From positions 1 to 31,530 of the forward strand of contig JBGPAT010000001.1 of the NCBI GenBank assembly GCA_041480885.1: a DNA stretch of 31,530 nt. Reading direction: 5' to 3'. A program made the position numbers and the translations under genes. This document shows positions 21,073-30,901 of this stretch, piece after piece. The stretch's first letter is position 1, and every line of letters begins with the position of its first letter. Origin of the DNA: Anaerolineae bacterium. Its GTDB lineage: Bacteria > Chloroflexota > Anaerolineae > Anaerolineales > Villigracilaceae. The notes beneath the pieces are model-generated. The model was not told the origin of the DNA, did not search any database, and saw only the letters and a list, made by a program, of their open reading frames with translations.

Positions 21073-22770
21073 TCACTTCTCGGGCGCGCCAGCCGTTATC
21101 CATTGTCCAACCAGGTCAAGCTCTGCCGCCGAGAGATTCGCAAAGTGCTGAGAACTCTGGATCCTGATCAGTAAACTGTTCGTCGCGTCACCAGGCGCGA
21201 TCACGGCGCGGTCCTTGCCACCTTTCATCGTGCCCGCATAGGTGGTCAGGTCCATGCCCCCGGCGAGCGTGGTGGGATTGTGGCACATGGTGCACTTGGC
21301 GGCGAAAACCGGCCCAATGTTCGCGTCATATGTCGGATTGCCCACCACGGCGGCCGGCGTCGGCAGGGGAGCCGGCGTGGGAACCTGTGCCTGCAGAATG
21401 GACCGCAGAACAGGCGCATCAAATCCCGCATATGTAAAGACACTTCCATGACATGCGCTGTTTGAGCAGAATGACGTGTTGCTGGTTCCGCCAGCATCGG
21501 CCATGGTGTGGCAGGCGGAGCAGGTGGCGTCGATGCTCTTGTTATGCAGGCTGATCCAATTGGCGTTGCGATGAGACTCGGGCTCAGGCCCGCGGCTGAT
21601 TTCGATCTTGGTCACAAAGTCCTGGGAGCCGGCCACCACAGGCACCGAATGACATAGATTGCATTCGAGGCGAATCGCCTGCTGGCTCGCGTCGAGATGC
21701 TTTCCGTCGTGGCAGCGGAAGCAGCCCGCGGAATTGATATGGCCGACATTCGAAGGATGTGTGTTCCAATTGTCCTTCTGGTCCAGGAATGCGGAGTCGG
21801 AATAGATCTGCTGTAGCGCAGCAATGGCCTGCGTGATCTTGGCGGTATTTGCGCCGTAGAAGCCCGAATAGTGAGTCTGATAATAGTTGTCCAAACTCGC
21901 GATACCCGCCTGGGCCTCAGCCTGAGTGCTGTAATCACGCCTCAGCGCTTCGACTCCCAGCTTTCGGATGTCCGGAATATCCTTTGAGATGCCTCCCAGG
22001 GATAGTGCTTCATCCACCGACTCCTCAGGCGTGTAGATGTGGTGCGTAATGCGGTTGTGACAAGTAATGCAGTCCATCTCCTTAAGCTTGGCTGGATCTA
22101 CCTTGGCAGGATCGAAACCAGACTGGACATCCACGTAGTCTGTCTTGGAACCATCATCGTTGACCACCTGCACAAAGGGAATGGTCTGTTCCAGAGTATC
22201 GGTGGGATAGTAGTAGACCTGGTTGACGATGTGCCAGTGGATGCCGAGGCCCAGCCCTGGCCGCTTGGCGCCTCCGCCCGTCTTCAGCACAAGGTAGGTA
22301 CTGTAGGGTGTGTTCTGCTGATCAGGCTGGAAATGGGAGATCACTCGCAGACTGTCGTCTGAGAATTTCTCGGGCGAATGGCATTTCTCGCAGGTCTCAC
22401 GCGCCGGACGCATGTTCTGGATATATATCGGATACTCGTACGTGCTGAAGGCTGTCGCCAGGATGTGCCTCACATCACCAGCCTTGCGGAAGATCTGGTT
22501 ACCAATGAACTCACGTCCAATGTGGCAGTCCACACAAGCTATGCGCGAGTGGGGCGAGACTTGATAGGCTGCAAACTCCGGCGGCATCGTATGGCATGTC
22601 GTGCCGCAGAATGACGGGGAGTTGGTGTAGTCCCACGCATACGCGCCGCCCACCAGAAGTGACAGGGTCAGAAGCCCCAGCACCGCATACGGCAGGATCA
22701 GGAGCCACCGAGGAGAACTGCGAGGCGGAAAGAAGAAGTGGCGGATGGCAGATCGGACTCGTGCTAGCAT
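21073..22770 (-). CDS. NapC/NirT-type membrane multiheme cytochrome c (ImcH-like) with tethered C-terminal monoheme domain
   Basis: N-terminal TM helix, NSPSFCGTTCHTM..Y..SPH..CVDCH, 7 CXXCH plus one CX3CH and one CX4CH, PTPAP linker before the last heme. Confidence 0.88.
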   Translation of the reverse strand: MLARVRSAIRHFFFPPRSSPRWLLILPYAVLGLLTLSLLVGGAYAWDYTNSPSFCGTTCHTMPPEFAAYQVSPHSRIACVDCHIGREFIGNQIFRKAGDVRHILATAFSTYEYPIYIQNMRPARETCEKCHSPEKFSDDSLRVISHFQPDQQNTPYSTYLVLKTGGGAKRPGLGLGIHWHIVNQVYYYPTDTLEQTIPFVQVVNDDGSKTDYVDVQSGFDPAKVDPAKLKEMDCITCHNRITHHIYTPEESVDEALSLGGISKDIPDIRKLGVEALRRDYSTQAEAQAGIASLDNYYQTHYSGFYGANTAKITQAIAALQQIYSDSAFLDQKDNWNTHPSNVGHINSAGCFRCHDGKHLDASQQAIRLECNLCHSVPVVAGSQDFVTKIEISRGPEPESHRNANWISLHNKSIDATCSACHTMADAGGTSNTSFCSNSACHGSVFTYAGFDAPVLRSILQAQVPTPAPLPTPAAVVGNPTYDANIGPVFAAKCTMCHNPTTLAGGMDLTTYAGTMKGGKDRAVIAPGDATNSLLIRIQSSQHFANLSAAELDLVGQWITAGAPEK

Positions 22771-22784
22771 CGATATTCACCTCA

Positions 22785-24914
22785 TTAGTTGTCTTGCGCG
22801 CCGGAAGCAATCCAGTTCAGAATCACCTGGAGATCCGCTTGAGGCAGACTACCCTGGGGTGGCATGGTCTGGCCGTTCGTTCCCTGAAGCATCTGGGCCA
22901 ACGGACTCTTTTCTACGTTCCCGGCAATGACCACGGGGCCGCCCTTTCCGCCGGCCATCACCGTGCTGTAAGAAGAGGCATCCCAGCCACCCAGCTTCGT
23001 GCCGGAGTTGTGGCACACTTGGCAGTTTGCCTTAAGAATCGGGAGCACCTGACCAGAAAAACTTGATGCAGAGGGTGTAGCAGCGGGAGTCGCAGTGCCC
23101 TCCGGCGCGCTCGCGATTGGTTTCAGTGTTCGAATGTACTGCACTAGTTGTTGAAGCTGGCCGGCACTTAGGAGGTCCCCCCACGCAATCATGGGAGTCG
23201 CTTCCCGGCCTTTGTCAATGACATTGAGCAGAGACTGATCGTCATAGCGATTCTGAAAATCCGCCGTGTTGAAGGCGGGACCAATACCACCTTCGCCGTT
23301 GGCGCCATGGCACCTGGCACACACATTTGCAAAAACCTGGGAACCGCTGAGTGCTGCACGACCAGCTGCCACCTCGGCTGGCAGATTGACCGGCGGATTG
23401 GCTTCCCAACTTCGGATAAAGGCCACCAGAGCATCAATCTGGTCATCGCTCAGAGGTCCGCCATTGGCCGAGCCAAAGGGCGACATCCCAAAATTGGGCT
23501 GGCCTTGTGAAATGATACTCCGCAAAGTAAGGTCATCTCGCGTCTTGAGAAACTCAGCCGAACTGATCGGAACGATCGTCTGGCTCGGATTGGCCGGATT
23601 GGGACCGCCTTCGCCAAATTGCCCATGGCAAACCGCGCAATTGCTCACAAATAGCTGAGCACCCTCTTCCGCACTCTGCCCTTTGCTCGCTGTTAGAGTG
23701 TAGTTCACTAGTGCATCCAGCTGCTCGGGCGTCAGTATTTTTCCCCACACCGGCATCGTCACATGGGCGCCGCCGCTCGCGATGATCTTGCGGGCACTCT
23801 CGAGATCAGGAGCGGTTGGCACCGTATTGCCGTGACAGACGCTGCAGCGCTGTCCAAACAGGGTCTTGCCGGCTGGATTGGAGGCGGGATCGGTCACATA
23901 GGCGGCCAGAGTATCGAGGTCAGCCTGGCTCAAGGTACCCTGCCACGCCGGCATTGAAAGGTGCTGTCCGCCTTTGCTGATGATGTCACGCAGCTGACTT
24001 TCGGTGCCGGTGAACGTGACGCCAAACCCGTGGCAACCCGAGCAGTTGACCTCGAACAGCCGCTGACCGTCGGGTGCGGCGAGGAAATTCAGCACCGCAT
24101 TGCGCTGTGCGTCCGTCAGAGTCTGTTTCCAAGCAGGCGTGCTCTGTTTCTGATGCGGGGGGTAATTTGGCCCTTCCTCAAATACCCGTTGCAGCTCCTG
24201 CGGATTCCCAGAGGCCTGTACGAGCGTCTTATGGCACGCTCCACACTCCTGGGTGTAGACCGCACTACCATTTGGTGACGTAATGAAGCCAGCCAGGGCA
24301 TCAATTTCGTCGGTGCTGAGATCGCCTCCCCAAGCAGGCATGCCTTCGTGTTTGCCCTGAGCGATGAGTTGATGGAGATCGGTGCCAGCTGGCACGACAA
24401 TTCCGGGTCCGTGGCAATTGGCGCAGTTCTTGGCGTAGAGGGCAGCGGCTTGATCAACGGGCGCTGCCACTTGAGGCGGCGGCGACTCTCGCACGGAGAG
24501 TATGGTCAATGTGGCGATTCCCCCCACGACCAATAAAGCCAACACGCTCGCAATGGGCCGGTCGAGGAAATGGCGCCTTGTACTTCTATCGATGAACGGC
24601 AGGGCGAACAGCAGGAGAATCAACAATCCAGGAATTACCATGACGCCGACAACTTCCAGCTTGCCGGGGAAGTACTTCAGAAGCTGAAATAGGAAGAGGA
24701 AGTACCATTCCGGGCGAGGAGTGTACGTCGCGTCATTTGGATCTGCCCTTGCCTCCGTCGGGACACCCAGGAAGTACGCCAGTGCCACTAGGACCAGGAA
24801 GATCACCAGCGACACAACCACGTCCTTGAAGATGATGTCGGGAAAGAACGGGACTCCTTTTTCCTTGGCTTTCTTGTAGCGTTCGAGATATTCCTTCTTC
24901 TCTTTCTCGTTCAT
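22785..24914 (-). CDS. Cytochrome b6 subunit IV (PetD/QcrC-like) fused to seven monoheme c domains
   Basis: PFFPD..KD, PEWYFLF Qo motif, 3 TM helices, then CANCH, CGACH, CSGCH, CSVCH, CAVCH, CARCH, CQVCH. Confidence 0.92.
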   Translation of the reverse strand: MNEKEKKEYLERYKKAKEKGVPFFPDIIFKDVVVSLVIFLVLVALAYFLGVPTEARADPNDATYTPRPEWYFLFLFQLLKYFPGKLEVVGVMVIPGLLILLLFALPFIDRSTRRHFLDRPIASVLALLVVGGIATLTILSVRESPPPQVAAPVDQAAALYAKNCANCHGPGIVVPAGTDLHQLIAQGKHEGMPAWGGDLSTDEIDALAGFITSPNGSAVYTQECGACHKTLVQASGNPQELQRVFEEGPNYPPHQKQSTPAWKQTLTDAQRNAVLNFLAAPDGQRLFEVNCSGCHGFGVTFTGTESQLRDIISKGGQHLSMPAWQGTLSQADLDTLAAYVTDPASNPAGKTLFGQRCSVCHGNTVPTAPDLESARKIIASGGAHVTMPVWGKILTPEQLDALVNYTLTASKGQSAEEGAQLFVSNCAVCHGQFGEGGPNPANPSQTIVPISSAEFLKTRDDLTLRSIISQGQPNFGMSPFGSANGGPLSDDQIDALVAFIRSWEANPPVNLPAEVAAGRAALSGSQVFANVCARCHGANGEGGIGPAFNTADFQNRYDDQSLLNVIDKGREATPMIAWGDLLSAGQLQQLVQYIRTLKPIASAPEGTATPAATPSASSFSGQVLPILKANCQVCHNSGTKLGGWDASSYSTVMAGGKGGPVVIAGNVEKSPLAQMLQGTNGQTMPPQGSLPQADLQVILNWIASGAQDN

Positions 24915-25576
24915 CGCTGCTCATTCCTCTCCGGCAGAGCCGAAATGCCAATACGGATCACCAGGTAGAGGTGCGTCCCCACGAGGGCCGCCAGAGCTGC
25001 GGGCAATACCCAAACGTGCGTGCCAAAAAAGCGAGCCAGCGTCACCGCGGACAGATCAGTGCCGCCACGGGCGATCCGCAGGAGCCAATCACCTACCAGC
25101 GGAGCCACGCCAGCAATTCGAGTGCCAACGGTCGTAGCCCAGTACGCTTTCTGATCCCACGGCAGCAAATAGCCGGTAAAACCGAAACCAATCACTACCA
25201 GGAACAGCAGCACGCCCGTGATCCATGTGGCCTCGCGCGGATATTTGTACGCGCCATAAAAAAAGACTCGCAGAAGATGCAGAACCACCAACACGATCAA
25301 TGCGCTCGCACCCCAGTGGTGCAGGCCTCGGATGAGCCAGCCCGCCGGCAGTTGGGTCGTGATGTAGACGACGCTGTCATAGGCATGGTCAGGTGTCGGC
25401 ACGTAGTAAAGTGTGAGCAAGATTCCGGTCACCGCCTGAATGGTGGCGACGAAGAGCGTGGCGCTGCCCAACGTGTATAGCCAGTTTACGTGAGGCACCT
25501 TGCGCAGGAATATGGCCTCCCACACGCTGCGCCAGCTAAAGCGCTCTTCCATCCAATCGGCGAATTTTGCCAGCAT
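24911..25576 (-). CDS. qcrB: Cytochrome b6 (N-terminal, 4-TM) subunit of Rieske/cyt b complex
   Basis: QAVTGILL.LYYVP, His pairs H-x13-H and H-x14-H, GFTGYLLPWDQKAYWA. Confidence 0.94.
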   Translation of the reverse strand: MLAKFADWMEERFSWRSVWEAIFLRKVPHVNWLYTLGSATLFVATIQAVTGILLTLYYVPTPDHAYDSVVYITTQLPAGWLIRGLHHWGASALIVLVVLHLLRVFFYGAYKYPREATWITGVLLFLVVIGFGFTGYLLPWDQKAYWATTVGTRIAGVAPLVGDWLLRIARGGTDLSAVTLARFFGTHVWVLPAALAALVGTHLYLVIRIGISALPERNEQR

Positions 25577-25577
25577 A

Positions 25578-26057
25578 TCAACCTCGCTTTATGTAGAGAA
25601 TCCCGGCCGTCACTTTGCTCTGGAACCGGTCAAGAGGTCGAGGCGGTGGCCCAGATACGACGGTCCCATCCTTCGCAAACACGCCGTTATGACAAGGACA
25701 ATGGTACTTGCCATCGTCGGCGATCCAGCGCACTCTGCATCCCAGGTGGGTGCAAATGTTCGAAATGACCACAAAATCCTGTCCGTTGTCAGTCAAGACG
25801 TAAGCCGACACTTCCTCTTCGGTCTTGATCCAGCCCGTCTGTGTCTGAACCGTGGTCTTGAAAAGCGTGGGATTCCCCATCTCAACCTTGCTGATTGCTC
25901 CCAGCCGGATCCATGCATCAGTAGCCTGCGTCAGGGCCGGGCCGATAACGTATGCAATCGCTGGCAGCCCGATCGCGGCGCCGATGAGCCCGCCGATGCT
26001 GAAGATCGCCGCTTTCATGAAGTCCCGACGGCCAAGCGGCGGCGTTTTGTCTTTCAT
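25578..26057 (-). CDS. qcrA: Rieske [2Fe-2S] protein, Tat signal-anchor
   Basis: GRRDFMK, CTHLGC and CPCHNG boxes, GPPPRPL. GGAGG RBS precedes ATG 26057. Confidence 0.94.
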   Translation of the reverse strand: MKDKTPPLGRRDFMKAAIFSIGGLIGAAIGLPAIAYVIGPALTQATDAWIRLGAISKVEMGNPTLFKTTVQTQTGWIKTEEEVSAYVLTDNGQDFVVISNICTHLGCRVRWIADDGKYHCPCHNGVFAKDGTVVSGPPPRPLDRFQSKVTAGILYIKRG

Positions 26058-26082
26058 GGTTGACCTCCAGTGTTCAGTACCT

Positions 26083-27300
26083 TCACTTTTCGAGAGCTCC
26101 CGCATCGATCCAGGCTTTGACCAGCGCAAGCTCTTCAGGGGACAACTGGCCGGGATGACCGCCGCTGGTCTGGACCTGGAATAGTTTGCTGTTAGCCGCA
26201 TCACTTGGGACAATGACGGGGCCATCCGTTGCGCCTTTCAGGGCGTCTGCATAGCTGCTCAGGTTCAGCCCGTTGGTTGCTAGAGTTGTGCCATGACACA
26301 TCCCGCACCTCGACGCGAAGATCGGAGCCACCTCTCCCCAAGAGATGGGCGAGCTGGTTCCGGCCGCAGCCTGCGCCGTGGGCACCGACGTCGCAGCAGG
26401 TACCGCCGTCGGCGTCGGCGGCAGCGCAGTGGGTGTCTGCGGAACATAGATGGGAACAGTCGTGGCAATCTCCGGCGGGACTGTTGTGATGGCGGTCTGC
26501 TCGCCGTTCACGAATCCATAGACGGCAAAGAGCAGGACCAGCGCGACTATGGCCGCAATTGGGTAATAGACATGCTGGCGTTTTCGAAGCGCGGCCGGCT
26601 CTGGCAGGCGGTCCGCAAAGCCCGCTTTGATGTCTGCCAGCTCCAGCGGATGCTCATGGAGCATTTCTTCTTCGCTCGCGCGGCCTGTCCACATGGCCTT
26701 GTTGAATCGCCTGAGATGAACCCCATACATGTGCCAGACGATGATGGCCAGGACGGCCAAAACTGCTTCCGCGCCATGGGCCGTCTTGGCGGCCGGGATG
26801 ATGTCGCCTGGCAGGAGCCGGACAGTGGTAAGAGGGTTCCACATCATGAATCCCGTTAGACCCATGATCAGGATGCCCCAAACCAGGGCCCAGTATTCCG
26901 CCTTCTCTTCGAAACCATAACGTCCCAGCTGTGGACGGGATTTGACGAGACCGATGTTGTATCTGAAGGCGGACCACGCATCAAGGACGTCCTGCACGCC
27001 TGGCAACATCGCCAGCGGCCGGCGCAGGACAAAGATCTTGTATCCAAGATTCACGATGTGATAGACGGCCACCAGCATGAGCAGGATAGCCGCGACATGA
27101 TGGGTGGTCCGGACGCGCTCAATCCCACCAAAGGAACGAACCATGAATACCGAAACGGAACTCAGCGCGTATTTCTGCACCAGACCGGTAAGCGCCAGGG
27201 TTGTGAAGGACAGCAGCATCACGAGATGCTGAATGCGATCTGACAGAGTGAATCGAACGTAGTTCCGCCGCGGCGCGGGAGCAGCCGTCTTCTTTGCCAT
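26083..27300 (-). CDS. FdnI/HydC-type diheme cytochrome b with tethered C-terminal monoheme c domain
   Basis: RF..SDRIQH, RTTHH, GRYGFEEKAEYWAL.WG, AHG.EA..A...WH; PTPT linker, then CGMCH. Confidence 0.9.
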   Translation of the reverse strand: MAKKTAAPAPRRNYVRFTLSDRIQHLVMLLSFTTLALTGLVQKYALSSVSVFMVRSFGGIERVRTTHHVAAILLMLVAVYHIVNLGYKIFVLRRPLAMLPGVQDVLDAWSAFRYNIGLVKSRPQLGRYGFEEKAEYWALVWGILIMGLTGFMMWNPLTTVRLLPGDIIPAAKTAHGAEAVLAVLAIIVWHMYGVHLRRFNKAMWTGRASEEEMLHEHPLELADIKAGFADRLPEPAALRKRQHVYYPIAAIVALVLLFAVYGFVNGEQTAITTVPPEIATTVPIYVPQTPTALPPTPTAVPAATSVPTAQAAAGTSSPISWGEVAPIFASRCGMCHGTTLATNGLNLSSYADALKGATDGPVIVPSDAANSKLFQVQTSGGHPGQLSPEELALVKAWIDAGALEK

Positions 27301-28463
27301 TAGTGCTGCGCTCCCTTCCGCGCCTGGATCATGCGTCTGATAATGTCGGATACAACGAAGATCAGCATGCCGCCGATGACAGTCGGGATGAAGATCTTGT
27401 AGAACAGGCCAACGTAGTACACCAGCGGAGACCTCGTGGGGCTAGCGATGTAGTGGCTCATCCATGCGTCGGTGAAGCTCGTGGTGGTCACGTCGGGATG
27501 GCAGCGTTGGCATTTCGTCAGCAGATTCTGCTTGATGGCGATGCCAGTGGCAGGATTATCCACCTTGGAAATGTTGTGGACACCATGACAATCGGTACAC
27601 ACCGGCTTGTTAGTCGGCGTGTCCGGCGAGACCTGCTCAAAAAGCGTGACCGTGGTGCCGTGGAAGTCGGCCACGTAGGTGTTGAGGACCTGCGTTGTGA
27701 TGCCATACTTGCCCATGATCTGCGGATTGGTATGGCACTTTGCGCACAACAGAGGTGTGTCATTACGGAAGCGAGCCGTGGTCGGGTTCTGGATATTATG
27801 AACGCCGTGGCAGTCAATGCAGGTCGGCACATCCAGGTTGCCCTCGGTGGTGAGCGCCGCGCCATGGACGCTGTTCTTGTAGGTATTGTAGATCGTGCTG
27901 TGACAGCGCGCACACGTGAGTGGAATTTGCAGGCGCGCCTGGGGCAGGAGCTCCCCAGTCTGTTTATCGGTCATGCGGATCTGTTGGTGCGGGTTATGAC
28001 AATCGGTGCAGACCGCGGCGTTGTTGTTCCCGCCTGCCAGCGCCGTCTGGTGAACGCTGTCCAACACCTTGCTGTACTGTTCCGCATGGCAGTTCTTGCA
28101 GCTGGTGTAGAGCTGAAGCGTCACCTGTCGAAGGGAATCAGCTTTGAAATCGGTGTGCGGAAACGTAGTGATGTTCGTATGGCAGTCGGCACACGCGATG
28201 TTCTCCTGATCGTGCACGCTGTGGCCGAATAGACCAGGATCAATATACAGTGAGAGTATTTCGCCGCTGGGAAGGGTTTTCGTCAGGCCCTGCTGACTAT
28301 GACAACCCAGGCAAAAGTCATTGGAAGGTTTGTCCTGAACGCGTGTTGCGAACCCCCCCACGGCGCTTGCGGGCGTCGCGATGACGATCGCGGCAAGCAG
28401 AAGCAAGCCCAACGCCGAGACAAGCAAGACTGCTCTTAGTCGGTTGTTCGGCCGTGCGGTCAT
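27300..28463 (-). CDS. Nonaheme cytochrome c with signal peptide and C-terminal TM helix
   Basis: 9 CXXCH motifs. The stop overlaps the start of the cytochrome b gene (TAATG). AGGAG RBS. Confidence 0.92.
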   Translation of the reverse strand: MTARPNNRLRAVLLVSALGLLLLAAIVIATPASAVGGFATRVQDKPSNDFCLGCHSQQGLTKTLPSGEILSLYIDPGLFGHSVHDQENIACADCHTNITTFPHTDFKADSLRQVTLQLYTSCKNCHAEQYSKVLDSVHQTALAGGNNNAAVCTDCHNPHQQIRMTDKQTGELLPQARLQIPLTCARCHSTIYNTYKNSVHGAALTTEGNLDVPTCIDCHGVHNIQNPTTARFRNDTPLLCAKCHTNPQIMGKYGITTQVLNTYVADFHGTTVTLFEQVSPDTPTNKPVCTDCHGVHNISKVDNPATGIAIKQNLLTKCQRCHPDVTTTSFTDAWMSHYIASPTRSPLVYYVGLFYKIFIPTVIGGMLIFVVSDIIRRMIQARKGAQH

Positions 28464-28609
28464 TGCCTTCTCCTGCGGATGACGGGCATGTCTTGAATAG
28501 GACGCAAAATGCGGGCAGTGGTTGATGGCACGTTGCCTACAAGTCTAATCTGCATGTTAGGGCACAAATAGTGCGGAATATCACGAAATTGATATGATTA
28601 GTCTTCAGA

Positions 28610-28656
28610 GAATGAATGAGATGGCGGGCGCGTTGCGCCCGCCATCTCATACATTC
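28610..28656. terminator. Long GC-rich hairpin downstream of decaheme gene (terminator or mRNA-stabilising stem)
   Basis: ATGAGATGGCGGGCGC-GTT-GCGCCCGCCATCTCAT, extendable by GAATG/CATTC across one mismatch. No clean U-tract. Confidence 0.65.
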
Positions 28657-28672
28657 CCCGATCTAGGTTCGT

Positions 28673-30901
28673 CTATGGCCTCTTGAGCTTCGAAACATCC
28701 CCGCCGAGATCCTTGATCGAGTCATACAGGAACTGCATGACATATTGCGGATTGTGGGCAAAGGCGCCTGGGTCCTTGATGGAGTACTGGTAGTTATAGG
28801 CCGCCTCCAGCAGGCGAGGCGTCCAGGCGTTGTAGCCGATGTTGCCCGTGTCATTCGTATCTGGCTTGCCATCCTTGTTAGCATCCACAAAGAAGTACGG
28901 ATAGGTCGCGGCGTCGTACACAATTGCCGTGCCTGCCTTCTTCTCTGCATAGGCTTGGACAGCTGCATACAGCGCCGTGCGATAGCTGTCGATCTCTGCA
29001 TAGATGCCTTCGGTGACGTCGCCGTTGCCGTTCCAGTCCGTGGTATCGGTGGTCGCACGGATCTTATCCAGGTCAGCGGTGCCGGTGACATTGGTGTGGC
29101 AAGCCTTGCAGGCATCAACTTTCACCGTAAGCTGATGGACATCATGGCAGTCCGTGCACTTGTTAAGCGGATGCACCGTGTTCTGGCCGAGATACTTCTG
29201 ATTGGCGTATTGATAGGCACCCTTTGCCGCATCCCCAAACAGTGTCGCACCGGCGGCAAAGTAGTGGACGTTCTTGAAGCTGATCTTCGGATCAGCCGTG
29301 TCGAGGGGCTTGCCAGCCAGATAGTTATTCACGGTGACTGTGGACTCGCGGCCCTGGTGGCACTCGATGCACAGGTTCGCATCCACGGGCTTGAGCGTGC
29401 CGTCCGCGTTCTTCTCGGTGCTGAAAGTCAGCGAAACGCCTGAGGGGAACGGGACGCTCGTGACCGCATAGCGATTCGGCCAGTTGGCTTCGTCATGGCA
29501 GGTCGAGCACATGAAACCATTGGCAGCGGGCTGCCCAACCACCCCGGTGATCTGAACCCCGGACTTGGTCACGACCTCGGTGCCGCTATTCGCAATATAC
29601 TGCGGCAGACCGGTGGCGCTGTGGCACTTGGCGCATGCTGCATCAACGGTGCCAGTGGAATCCCAGTGGCGGAACGGTTCAGTGTCGCCCGCGAAGTGAC
29701 CCGCATCGTCCCGAGCCAGCTTGCTCATATCGACCGGCTTGGAAATCTTGCCGTTGAGGTCATCAATAGAGTCGTGGAGCAACTCAATGATGTACTTCGC
29801 GTTGTGAGCGAATGCGCCCGGATCCTTGGCAGACACCTGATAGTTGTAGGCAGCCTTCAGCAGACGCGCGGTCCACTTGCCGTAGGGGACAGGATTACCC
29901 TTGGCATCCTTGGCCACGGTCCCGTCGCTGGCTGCAGAAAGGAAGTAGGGATAGGTCGCCCCATCATAGACGACGGGTGCGCCCCCAACTTCAGTGGCAT
30001 ACGCCTGAATGGACGAATACAGGATATCCTGCAGGCCCTTCAGCTCGTAGTAGATGCCTTCCTTGGTGTCGCCATTGCCGTTGTAATCCGCAAGCGAACC
30101 GTTTTCGCGGTTGTTTTTCAGATCATCAACGGTTTTGACGCCCTGGTGGCACTGCGCGCACTGGTCCACGCGCACCTTGGTGGCGTGCTGGTCATGGCAG
30201 GCGATGCAGGTATCGAACTCCGGTACATGCCGGAACTTGGGATCGTAGGACTTGCCATCGTACTCATACCCCATTTGAGCCTGCGATCCGTACAGAGTCG
30301 CACCGGCCGCAAAGTAGTGGACATTGCGGAAGCCGAAGTTCACGGGCTTGCCGCTGGAATCCGTCATCGGCGCCACCACGGCATCGACGTCAGTGACCTT
30401 GAAGTCGCTGATCTGCTTGTCAACACTGACCTTGGACTCACGCCCCTGATGACAGCTCATGCAGCGCGCCTCACCTTCCTCGGAAGTCTGCACGACTTTT
30501 CCCGAGGGGAAGGTGACCGAGTTCAAAGCGATTGCGGCCGGGTTGTGGCAGGTGTCGCAGTTGAAGGTGCCGGCGGGAGCTTTCACGTCCGTGCTGGTCT
30601 TCCCGGTCGAGGCAAATTCCTGAAAGCCAGCCGAGGTATGGCATTTGGCGCAAGTCGCCGGAACTACGGCAGGCGTATCGCCATTCCAATGCGTGAAAGG
30701 CACAGCATTGGCATCCGCATGGCCGGAAGCCAGGAAGGCGTCCTTGAACGGGACGACGAGCGTCAGCGCGGGGGCCGCGGTGGTGGGGGCCGTCGTGGTG
30801 CCGCTGGTCGCCGGCGTAGCAGCGGTTCCCCCGCAGGCTGCCAGCGCGACAGCAGCTACGAGCATCACTCCTAGAAGAACGAGTACTTTCCTAAGGGACA
30901 T
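28673..30901 (-). CDS. Decaheme cytochrome c lipoprotein built from two tandem pentaheme modules
   Basis: Lipobox LAA-C after a hydrophobic signal (AAGGAG RBS precedes ATG 30901), 10 CXXCH motifs, duplicated NVHYFAAGATL and AAYNY..DPGAFAHN motifs. Confidence 0.92.
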   Translation of the reverse strand: MSLRKVLVLLGVMLVAAVALAACGGTAATPATSGTTTAPTTAAPALTLVVPFKDAFLASGHADANAVPFTHWNGDTPAVVPATCAKCHTSAGFQEFASTGKTSTDVKAPAGTFNCDTCHNPAAIALNSVTFPSGKVVQTSEEGEARCMSCHQGRESKVSVDKQISDFKVTDVDAVVAPMTDSSGKPVNFGFRNVHYFAAGATLYGSQAQMGYEYDGKSYDPKFRHVPEFDTCIACHDQHATKVRVDQCAQCHQGVKTVDDLKNNRENGSLADYNGNGDTKEGIYYELKGLQDILYSSIQAYATEVGGAPVVYDGATYPYFLSAASDGTVAKDAKGNPVPYGKWTARLLKAAYNYQVSAKDPGAFAHNAKYIIELLHDSIDDLNGKISKPVDMSKLARDDAGHFAGDTEPFRHWDSTGTVDAACAKCHSATGLPQYIANSGTEVVTKSGVQITGVVGQPAANGFMCSTCHDEANWPNRYAVTSVPFPSGVSLTFSTEKNADGTLKPVDANLCIECHQGRESTVTVNNYLAGKPLDTADPKISFKNVHYFAAGATLFGDAAKGAYQYANQKYLGQNTVHPLNKCTDCHDVHQLTVKVDACKACHTNVTGTADLDKIRATTDTTDWNGNGDVTEGIYAEIDSYRTALYAAVQAYAEKKAGTAIVYDAATYPYFFVDANKDGKPDTNDTGNIGYNAWTPRLLEAAYNYQYSIKDPGAFAHNPQYVMQFLYDSIKDLGGDVSKLKRP

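Follow-up and report, generated by a model that had tools for sequence, protein, structure and literature searches.

A probable two-gene CbcL-type cytochrome bc module in a sediment Anaerolineales bacterium

Extracellular electron transfer in Geobacter leaves the inner membrane by three gateways. One of these is CbcL, which is required for the reduction of acceptors below about -0.1 V, and the question raised by the locus described here is whether two neighbouring cytochrome genes of a very different bacterium together make up a module of the same type. The locus lies in a stretch of 31,530 nucleotides (the window) of contig JBGPAT010000001.1, from an uncultured sediment Anaerolineales bacterium (Chloroflexota), in which a gene for a nonahaem cytochrome c is followed on the minus strand by a gene for a cytochrome b. 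The explanation that we favour, with a probability of roughly 0.7, is that the pair encodes an unfused CbcL-type menaquinol:cytochrome c oxidoreductase. Within this explanation it is very probable that the two proteins are subunits of one membrane cytochrome, a split bc complex of the CbcL superfamily (CbcL/MtoC/MtrH), and there is a somewhat better than even chance, argued by analogy, that this complex works as a quinol oxidase feeding extracytoplasmic cytochromes. A two-gene unit of this type is found in the Anaerolineales and in many other phyla, beside ImcH-like and OcwA-like cytochromes, and the Anaerolineae, which are abundant in sediments, may possess a Geobacter-like chain from quinol to the cell surface.

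The two genes and their likeness to CbcL

An earlier note on this DNA had described a nine-haem protein ending in a membrane helix, an FdnI-type cytochrome b whose start overlaps the stop of the nine-haem gene, a gene order and haem count as in CbcL, and an extra c haem at the end, and each of these is borne out. The nonahaem subunit has CXXCH motifs at residues 51, 91, 122, 152, 184, 215, 240, 289 and 318 of its 387 residues and a membrane helix at about residues 345-377. The plus strand reads CATTA at 27298-27302, which on the minus strand gives a TAA stop and an ATG start that share a single base at 27300; the order is cytochrome c and then cytochrome b, with nine c haems in the first protein, and a further CXXCH is found at residue 332 of the b subunit, within a PSCyt1 domain.

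A putative signal peptide places the nonahaem domain outside the cytoplasmic membrane. Besides the motif histidines, those at residues 84, 103, 138, 159, 200, 222, 268, 296 and 337 are fully or almost fully conserved among 41 aligned relatives, and these nine would suffice for bis-His ligation of all nine haems. Searching the PDB with the nonahaem subunit gave local matches only, to NrfA-type and NrfB-type haem-packing segments. The anchor helix at 345-377 has no histidine, and the same is true of the closest fused relatives. CbcL-clade proteins, unlike the window, do have a histidine in the first helix after the haem domain, and in the Geobacter literature this residue of CbcL is reportedly treated as a possible b-haem ligand.

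The b subunit matches PF01292 over residues 16-205 (49.1 bits, cut-off 30.1) and PSCyt1 over residues 332-375, and it finds Escherichia coli FdnI (1kqf_C) with an E of 1e-6 as a single sequence and of 5e-19 as a family profile. Its His25, His67, His175 and His190 align with the four haem-ligand positions of FdnI, which in the 1KQF structure are His18, 57, 155 and 169, with the quinone site at the cytoplasmic haem, and all four are invariant across split, fused and CbcL-clade sequences. The third helix of the b core falls under the hydropathy threshold and was identified by eye and from the alignment to FdnI.

CbcL itself (GSU0274) is a protein of 619 residues with haem motifs at 34, 57, 82, 105, 129, 158, 186, 229 and 257 and six helices (Table S2, PMC6295460). 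As stand-ins for it we used seven Desulfobacterota proteins of 615-621 residues with the motif spacing of GSU0274 (23, 25, 23, 24, 29, 28, 43, 28), drawn from 401 genomes of the phylum of a metagenome-assembled genome (MAG) with a CbcL-clade protein. With the database size set to 1e8, the nonahaem subunit aligns to the seven stand-ins in single BLAST alignments of about 300-370 residues (E 1e-21 to 7e-29) and the b subunit over its four-helix core (E 1e-11 to 5e-19), and profiles of the window's family match them with E values of 1e-35 to 1e-43. The controls, which were the remaining multihaem cytochromes of the window, gave a BLAST E of 0.45 or no match to the same proteins and fragmentary profile matches only. 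In a MAFFT alignment of the two subunits with fused relatives and other CbcL-clade proteins, nine of nine CXXCH columns and the four b-haem histidines coincide. For orientation, the published survey of CbcL, MtoC and MtrH took a BLAST E < 0.01 as its criterion of similarity (PMC6295460). These sequence comparisons support homology of both subunits to CbcL.

The likeness extends to the architecture, as the nine c motifs correspond one to one, the dihaem b is of the FdnI/HydC type with the same four histidines, and the parts follow one another as c domain, anchor helix, b core and last helix; the one helix of the c subunit and the five of the b subunit equal the six listed for GSU0274, with similar spacing, and neither system has an iron-sulfur (FeS), flavin, molybdenum or NiFe partner. 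The pair thus has what marks the superfamily, namely similarity in both halves, nine CXXCH motifs, six helices with a dihaem b core and the b-haem histidines, but it lacks two marks of CbcL proper, a single fused polypeptide and a place within the CbcL clade. There are other differences: the b subunit of the window ends in a Pro/Thr linker and a PSCyt1 domain that the aligned CbcL-clade proteins do not have, the last helix of GSU0274 ending 8 residues from the C-terminus (table in PMC6295460), and whereas the hosts of CbcL are diderm Desulfobacterota, that of the window belongs to the Chloroflexota, in which the module is known from sequence alone. Of two gain-of-function positions of CbcL, V205 cannot be placed to within one residue, and the equivalent of F525 is apparently Ile187 of the b subunit, in a numbering that rests on a fingerprint offset. 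The positions of all features are collected in Table 1.

Table 1. Features of the cytochrome pair and of the genes downstream, in window coordinates
Feature	Position	Strand	Remarks
Gene for nonahaem cytochrome c subunit, 387 residues	27300..28463	minus	Nine CXXCH and nine further conserved His
Signal peptide, about residues 1-34, Ala-x-Ala-type end	28362..28463	minus	Hydrophobic stretch 11-29; read from sequence
C-terminal membrane helix, residues 345-377	27333..27431	minus	From hydropathy; equals first of six helices of fused CbcL
TAATG junction	27298..27302	minus	Stop of c gene and start of b gene share base 27300
Gene for cytochrome b subunit with tethered c haem, 405 residues	26083..27300	minus	PF01292, PSCyt1
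FdnI/HydC-type four-helix dihaem core, residues 14-228	26617..27261	minus	His25, His67, His175, His190
Fifth membrane helix, residues 246-264	26509..26565	minus	Equals sixth CbcL helix; brings C-terminus to outer face
Pro/Thr/Ala-rich linker, about residues 265-325	26326..26508	minus	Read from sequence
PSCyt1-type monohaem c domain, CXXCH at 332-336	26086..26325	minus	Tenth c haem
Downstream genes: Rieske, cytochrome b6, subunit IV fused to c-type domains, NrfH-like cytochrome with PSCyt1	21073..26057	minus	Operon context, outside the module proper

Split and fused forms across phyla

It had been suggested in the earlier note that the split be confirmed in reads and in orthologues, and it is seen both in independent contigs and in orthologues. 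Contigs (Logan) from four sediment metagenome runs, for which four studies are listed, span position 27300 with few substitutions and no insertions or deletions, and a syntenic metagenome contig of 562 kb keeps the gene order of the island as well as the one-base overlap. For each subunit, the 120 best homologues are separate proteins, those of the cytochrome c being about 323-415 residues long with 65-79% identity and those of the cytochrome b 401-437 or about 553-589 residues long with 55-75% identity; the named ones among them come from Anaerolineales or Chloroflexota MAGs. The two-gene state is kept by hundreds of orthologues, and when 60 relatives were searched the module turned up in 20 of 34 species within the genus and 8 of 25 genera within the order, with every open frame of split size.

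Fused relatives do exist. An exhaustive search with the b core returned 1964 relatives, some of which have a multihaem domain ahead of the b core, and these include one protein from an Anaerolineae MAG and one from a Dehalococcoidia MAG. Against a 689-residue fused protein from the cluster of the Anaerolineae protein, the nonahaem subunit aligns to residues 2-373 (44%, E 4e-113) and the b subunit to residues 396-689 (51%, E 7e-99), and the fused protein of the Anaerolineae type keeps a methionine at the position where the b subunit starts. From this collinear fit and the retained methionine it follows that the split and fused forms differ essentially by one stop codon in a cytoplasmic loop.

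A DNA search of species-representative genomes found 80 loci in MAGs labelled with many phyla, and both states are abundant among them. The split pairs are from Rokubacteria, Nitrospirota, Acidobacteriota, Myxococcota, Binatia, Chloroflexota and Acidimicrobiia; the fused proteins, in which the b domain is preceded by 6 to 25 haem motifs, are from Planctomycetota, Verrucomicrobiota, Bacteroidota, Ignavibacteriota and Gemmatimonadota, among others. Many phyla thus have the two-gene form, which represents a variant of a module already known.

A quick maximum-likelihood tree was built from 112 b domains, of which 52 are fused and 60 split. In it the window falls within an Anaerolineae clade of split forms (support 99), and this clade lies in a larger group, starred on the tree, that also contains fused proteins from Anaerolineae and Acidobacteriota. 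The split and fused states are interleaved, with at least nine changes between them. Two other PF01292 proteins of the same genome were used as outgroup, and these came out on branches of length 10 and not on one side of a branch; since the rooting is unclean, the tree shows nothing on which state is older. The split state may nevertheless be the older one, with CbcL a derived fusion, by analogy with the FdnI family, which as a rule works with a separate partner that has a C-terminal anchor helix of its own.

The survey of Zhong and Shi in 2018 listed single polypeptides only, of 416-1034 residues with 3 to 23 haem motifs, and none from Chloroflexi (PMC6295460). The family surveyed there is of the same superfamily as the window pair, and the fused relatives recovered here carry the same phylum labels, the MAGs found by a DNA search with a fused query being labelled Planctomycetota, Verrucomicrobiota, Bacteroidota, Ignavibacteriota, Lentisphaerota, Gemmatimonadota, Nitrospirota and Acidobacteriota; the split forms, in contrast, make up 60 of the 112 b domains sampled here and are absent from that survey. 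Marker-gene surveys of electron-exporting bacteria that look for a single fused protein would therefore undercount the CbcL family. Gene pairs of a dihaem cytochrome b and a multihaem cytochrome are present in Geobacter genomes and have been called "reminiscent" of CbcL in the literature, and among the papers that our literature searches brought up, none describes this Anaerolineales pair.

Subunit contact, electron flow and other explanations

The complex of the two proteins was predicted from residues 30-387 of the nonahaem subunit and residues 1-270 of the b subunit, each with its own alignment. It scored an ipSAE of 0.77 against 0.00 for the best control, where the ipSAE mark applied is reached by 58 of 80 solved complexes and by 2 of 110 mismatched pairs, and three prediction runs had at least 80% of their contacts in common with a partner predicted local distance difference test score (pLDDT) of at least 81. 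In the predicted interface the anchor helix of the c subunit (345-377) runs along helix 4 of the b subunit (164-197), which bears two of the haem ligands, and residues 264-279 and 322-335 of the c subunit, which surround haems 8 and 9, lie on the outer loops. The model supports the binding of the nonahaem and b subunits to each other, and part of this result may reflect likeness to the solved formate dehydrogenase-N (Fdn-N); PDB searches found no structure of a CbcL complex. Purification of the two subunits separately could ease the study of the interface between b and c.

The predicted arrangement can be set beside FdnH-FdnI of Fdn-N (1KQF), which has the same b fold and haem-ligand histidines as well as a separate periplasmic electron-transfer partner with a C-terminal helix of its own, an analogous case being the small subunit and cytochrome b of NiFe hydrogenases. 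In the 1KQF structure the anchor helix of FdnH lies beside FdnI. The systems differ in that the partner in the window is a nine-haem cytochrome c and not an FeS protein with a catalytic subunit, and in that the b subunit, unlike FdnI, scores below the equivalog cut-off and has a fifth helix and a c-haem domain.

For the module itself we infer the substrate, the direction of electron flow and the partners. The nonahaem subunit would be located on the outer face of the b subunit, held there by its own helix like FdnH beside FdnI, and the two b haems would be ligated by His25 and His190 on the cytoplasmic side and by His67 and His175 on the outer side. Menaquinol would be oxidised near the cytoplasmic-side b haem, as proposed for CbcL, and the electrons would cross the membrane via the two b haems, join the chain of nine c haems in the region of haems 8-9 and be handed on to the tethered PSCyt1 haem, to the neighbouring decahaem lipoprotein, or to both. 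As has been discussed for CbcL, a quinol site of this type releases its protons to the cytoplasm and would build no proton motive force (bioRxiv 10.1101/2022.08.31.506072).

A number of points weigh against this explanation. The comparison to CbcL rests on stand-ins recognised by haem-motif spacing and length and not on GSU0274 itself, the identity to these stand-ins is low (24-31%), and in the quick tree, with its unclean rooting, the CbcL-clade proteins are in a different major clade from the window. Split members of the family have been characterised by sequence only. As regards direction, the FdnI fold acts as a quinone reductase in Fdn-N. Among the relatives, MtoC is found in Fe(II) oxidisers and has been proposed to be a quinone reductase (PMC6295460). 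Finally, the genome has two haem-copper oxidase matches (C115:2279-3598 and C6:17294-18553) together with a weak match to cytochrome bd (C389), so that electrons of the chain need not leave the cell. The bacterium is probably not strictly anaerobic. The refuting outcome named in the earlier note, a lack of alignment to CbcL, is not what was seen, as both subunits are collinear with the CbcL-clade stand-ins; its description of the locus as a split CbcL stands for the architecture, but not as a derived event, given that the two-gene state is common across phyla and may be the older one.

The gene neighbourhood bears on direction as well. The c and b genes adjoin each other in every case, both in the Anaerolineaceae and in the order to which the window belongs; the companions of the pair are a decahaem lipoprotein and an NrfH/ImcH-like cytochrome, with an NrfD-FeS-octahaem triad on the other strand. 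A cassette of Rieske, cytochrome b6 and subunit IV-heptahaem genes (22785-26057) sits between the cytochrome b and NrfH-like genes of the window. The longest Rieske open reading frame (25578-26225) overlaps the cytochrome b gene by 143 bp, and the true start is likely to be the ATG at 26057, 25 nt past the cytochrome b stop, because it has GGAGG ahead of it and a twin-arginine signal after it and because the Rieske gene in the syntenic contig L087 encodes 160 residues. The cassette is present in the window, in L087, and in G005, G015 and G041 (the last of these from another family), and is missing from eight of ten further genomes sampled in the genus, in which the island is otherwise kept, and also from the Anaerolineaceae. 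As most of the other genomes do without it, the cassette is regarded as an optional insertion.

The alternative that survives best, although it is unlikely, is that the same complex runs in reverse as a quinone reductase, in which external electrons from Fe(II), reduced humics or a syntrophic partner would travel through the decahaem and nonahaem cytochromes to menaquinone, which would be reduced at the cytoplasmic side. Such a reaction would be electrogenic, as in Fdn-N. In the lineage of the window, the quinol would then be re-oxidised on the outer side by the co-transcribed Rieske/b6 complex, from which an oxidase would receive the electrons, closing a redox loop. The conserved FdnI-type ligand set, hence probably an inner-side quinone site, would suit this direction, as would the short distance from the cytochrome b stop to the Rieske start, the two haem-copper oxidase matches and the occurrence of MtoC relatives, proposed quinone reductases, in Fe(II) oxidisers (PMC6295460). 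The cassette on which the loop depends is however optional, the pair in Anaerolineaceae adjoins an NrfH/ImcH-like quinol dehydrogenase instead, and sequence does not fix direction. More doubtful again is the specific proposal that in the cassette-bearing lineages (window, L087, G005, G015 and G041) the CbcL-type and Rieske/b6 complexes form one menaquinone loop that takes up external electrons; if true, the two together would be an electron-uptake respiratory chain in Anaerolineales.

Two further explanations differ from the unfused CbcL-type complex in what they take the proteins to be. It is very improbable that the cytochrome b anchors a formate dehydrogenase, hydrogenase or thiosulfate reductase encoded elsewhere and that the nonahaem protein is an unrelated neighbour. 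Homologues of the b subunit do bear the source annotation "formate dehydrogenase subunit gamma", and TIGR01583 is its best NCBIfam match, but the score of 47 is far under the cut-off of 115.85; the c and b genes, moreover, never stand apart, overlapping or lying a few bases from each other, and are fused in many relatives, and the predicted interface between their products is specific. Nor does the syntenic contig have a molybdopterin or NiFe subunit within 10 kb of the pair, or a molybdopterin or FeS partner adjoining it.

We give as little credit to a module of the CbcBA (Cbc5) type, with which the pair was compared by its published description. CbcBA (GSU0593-0594) is also a separate cytochrome b and multihaem cytochrome c (bioRxiv 10.1101/2021.04.15.440034), a two-protein bc quinol oxidoreductase with a C-terminal anchor on the c subunit. 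According to the same description there is no sequence homology between CbcB and the b domain of CbcL, and the C-terminal domain of CbcA apparently holds the fourth b-haem histidine (bioRxiv 10.1101/2021.04.15.440034). The b subunit of the window, in contrast, is homologous to CbcL-clade b domains, holds all four ligand histidines itself and has five helices where CbcB has four, and the nine haems of the c subunit all align to the CbcL clade, its anchor helix is free of histidine and the order is c and then b.

That the split is a sequencing or assembly frameshift of one fused gene, for which the existence of fused relatives and the methionine retained in one of them might speak, is next to inconceivable in view of the indel-free contigs of four runs, the identical overlap in the 562-kb contig, the hundreds of separate orthologues and the split-sized open frames of all the genus relatives searched.

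Tethered haem domains and the intergenic region

With an odd number of helices and its N-terminus inside, the b subunit would carry the PSCyt1 haem domain outside the membrane, the side on which haems of the c type are attached. This domain has 45% identity to the C-terminal domain of the NrfH-like protein of the operon (21073-21340) and 31% identity to that of subunit IV (22785-23110), and the same tethered haem domain is therefore found on three quinone-linked membrane proteins of one operon. A weak match of the family profile to the Fe(II) oxidase FoxE (5mab_A, E 0.005) was also seen.

A consensus scan of 25950-28750 gave no promoter-like sites, and terminator-like sites solely within genes; no RNA dataset is listed as containing the window stretch. 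In the 209-bp gap between the decahaem lipoprotein and nonahaem genes there is a perfect 14-bp inverted repeat with a 3-nt loop (28618-28648), which the scan did not call because its tail is not T-rich, and this may be a terminator or attenuator separating two transcription units.

Among the relatives, the last helix of the b subunit appears as a platform for varied tails, of which the single PSCyt1 haem of the window is one. Homologues of the b subunit of 580 residues have class I cytochrome c domains appended, and a fused form from Acidobacteriota has four CXXCH motifs appended after the last helix. One relative of 1333 residues (L018) has 27 CXXCH motifs, 25 of them ahead of the b domain.

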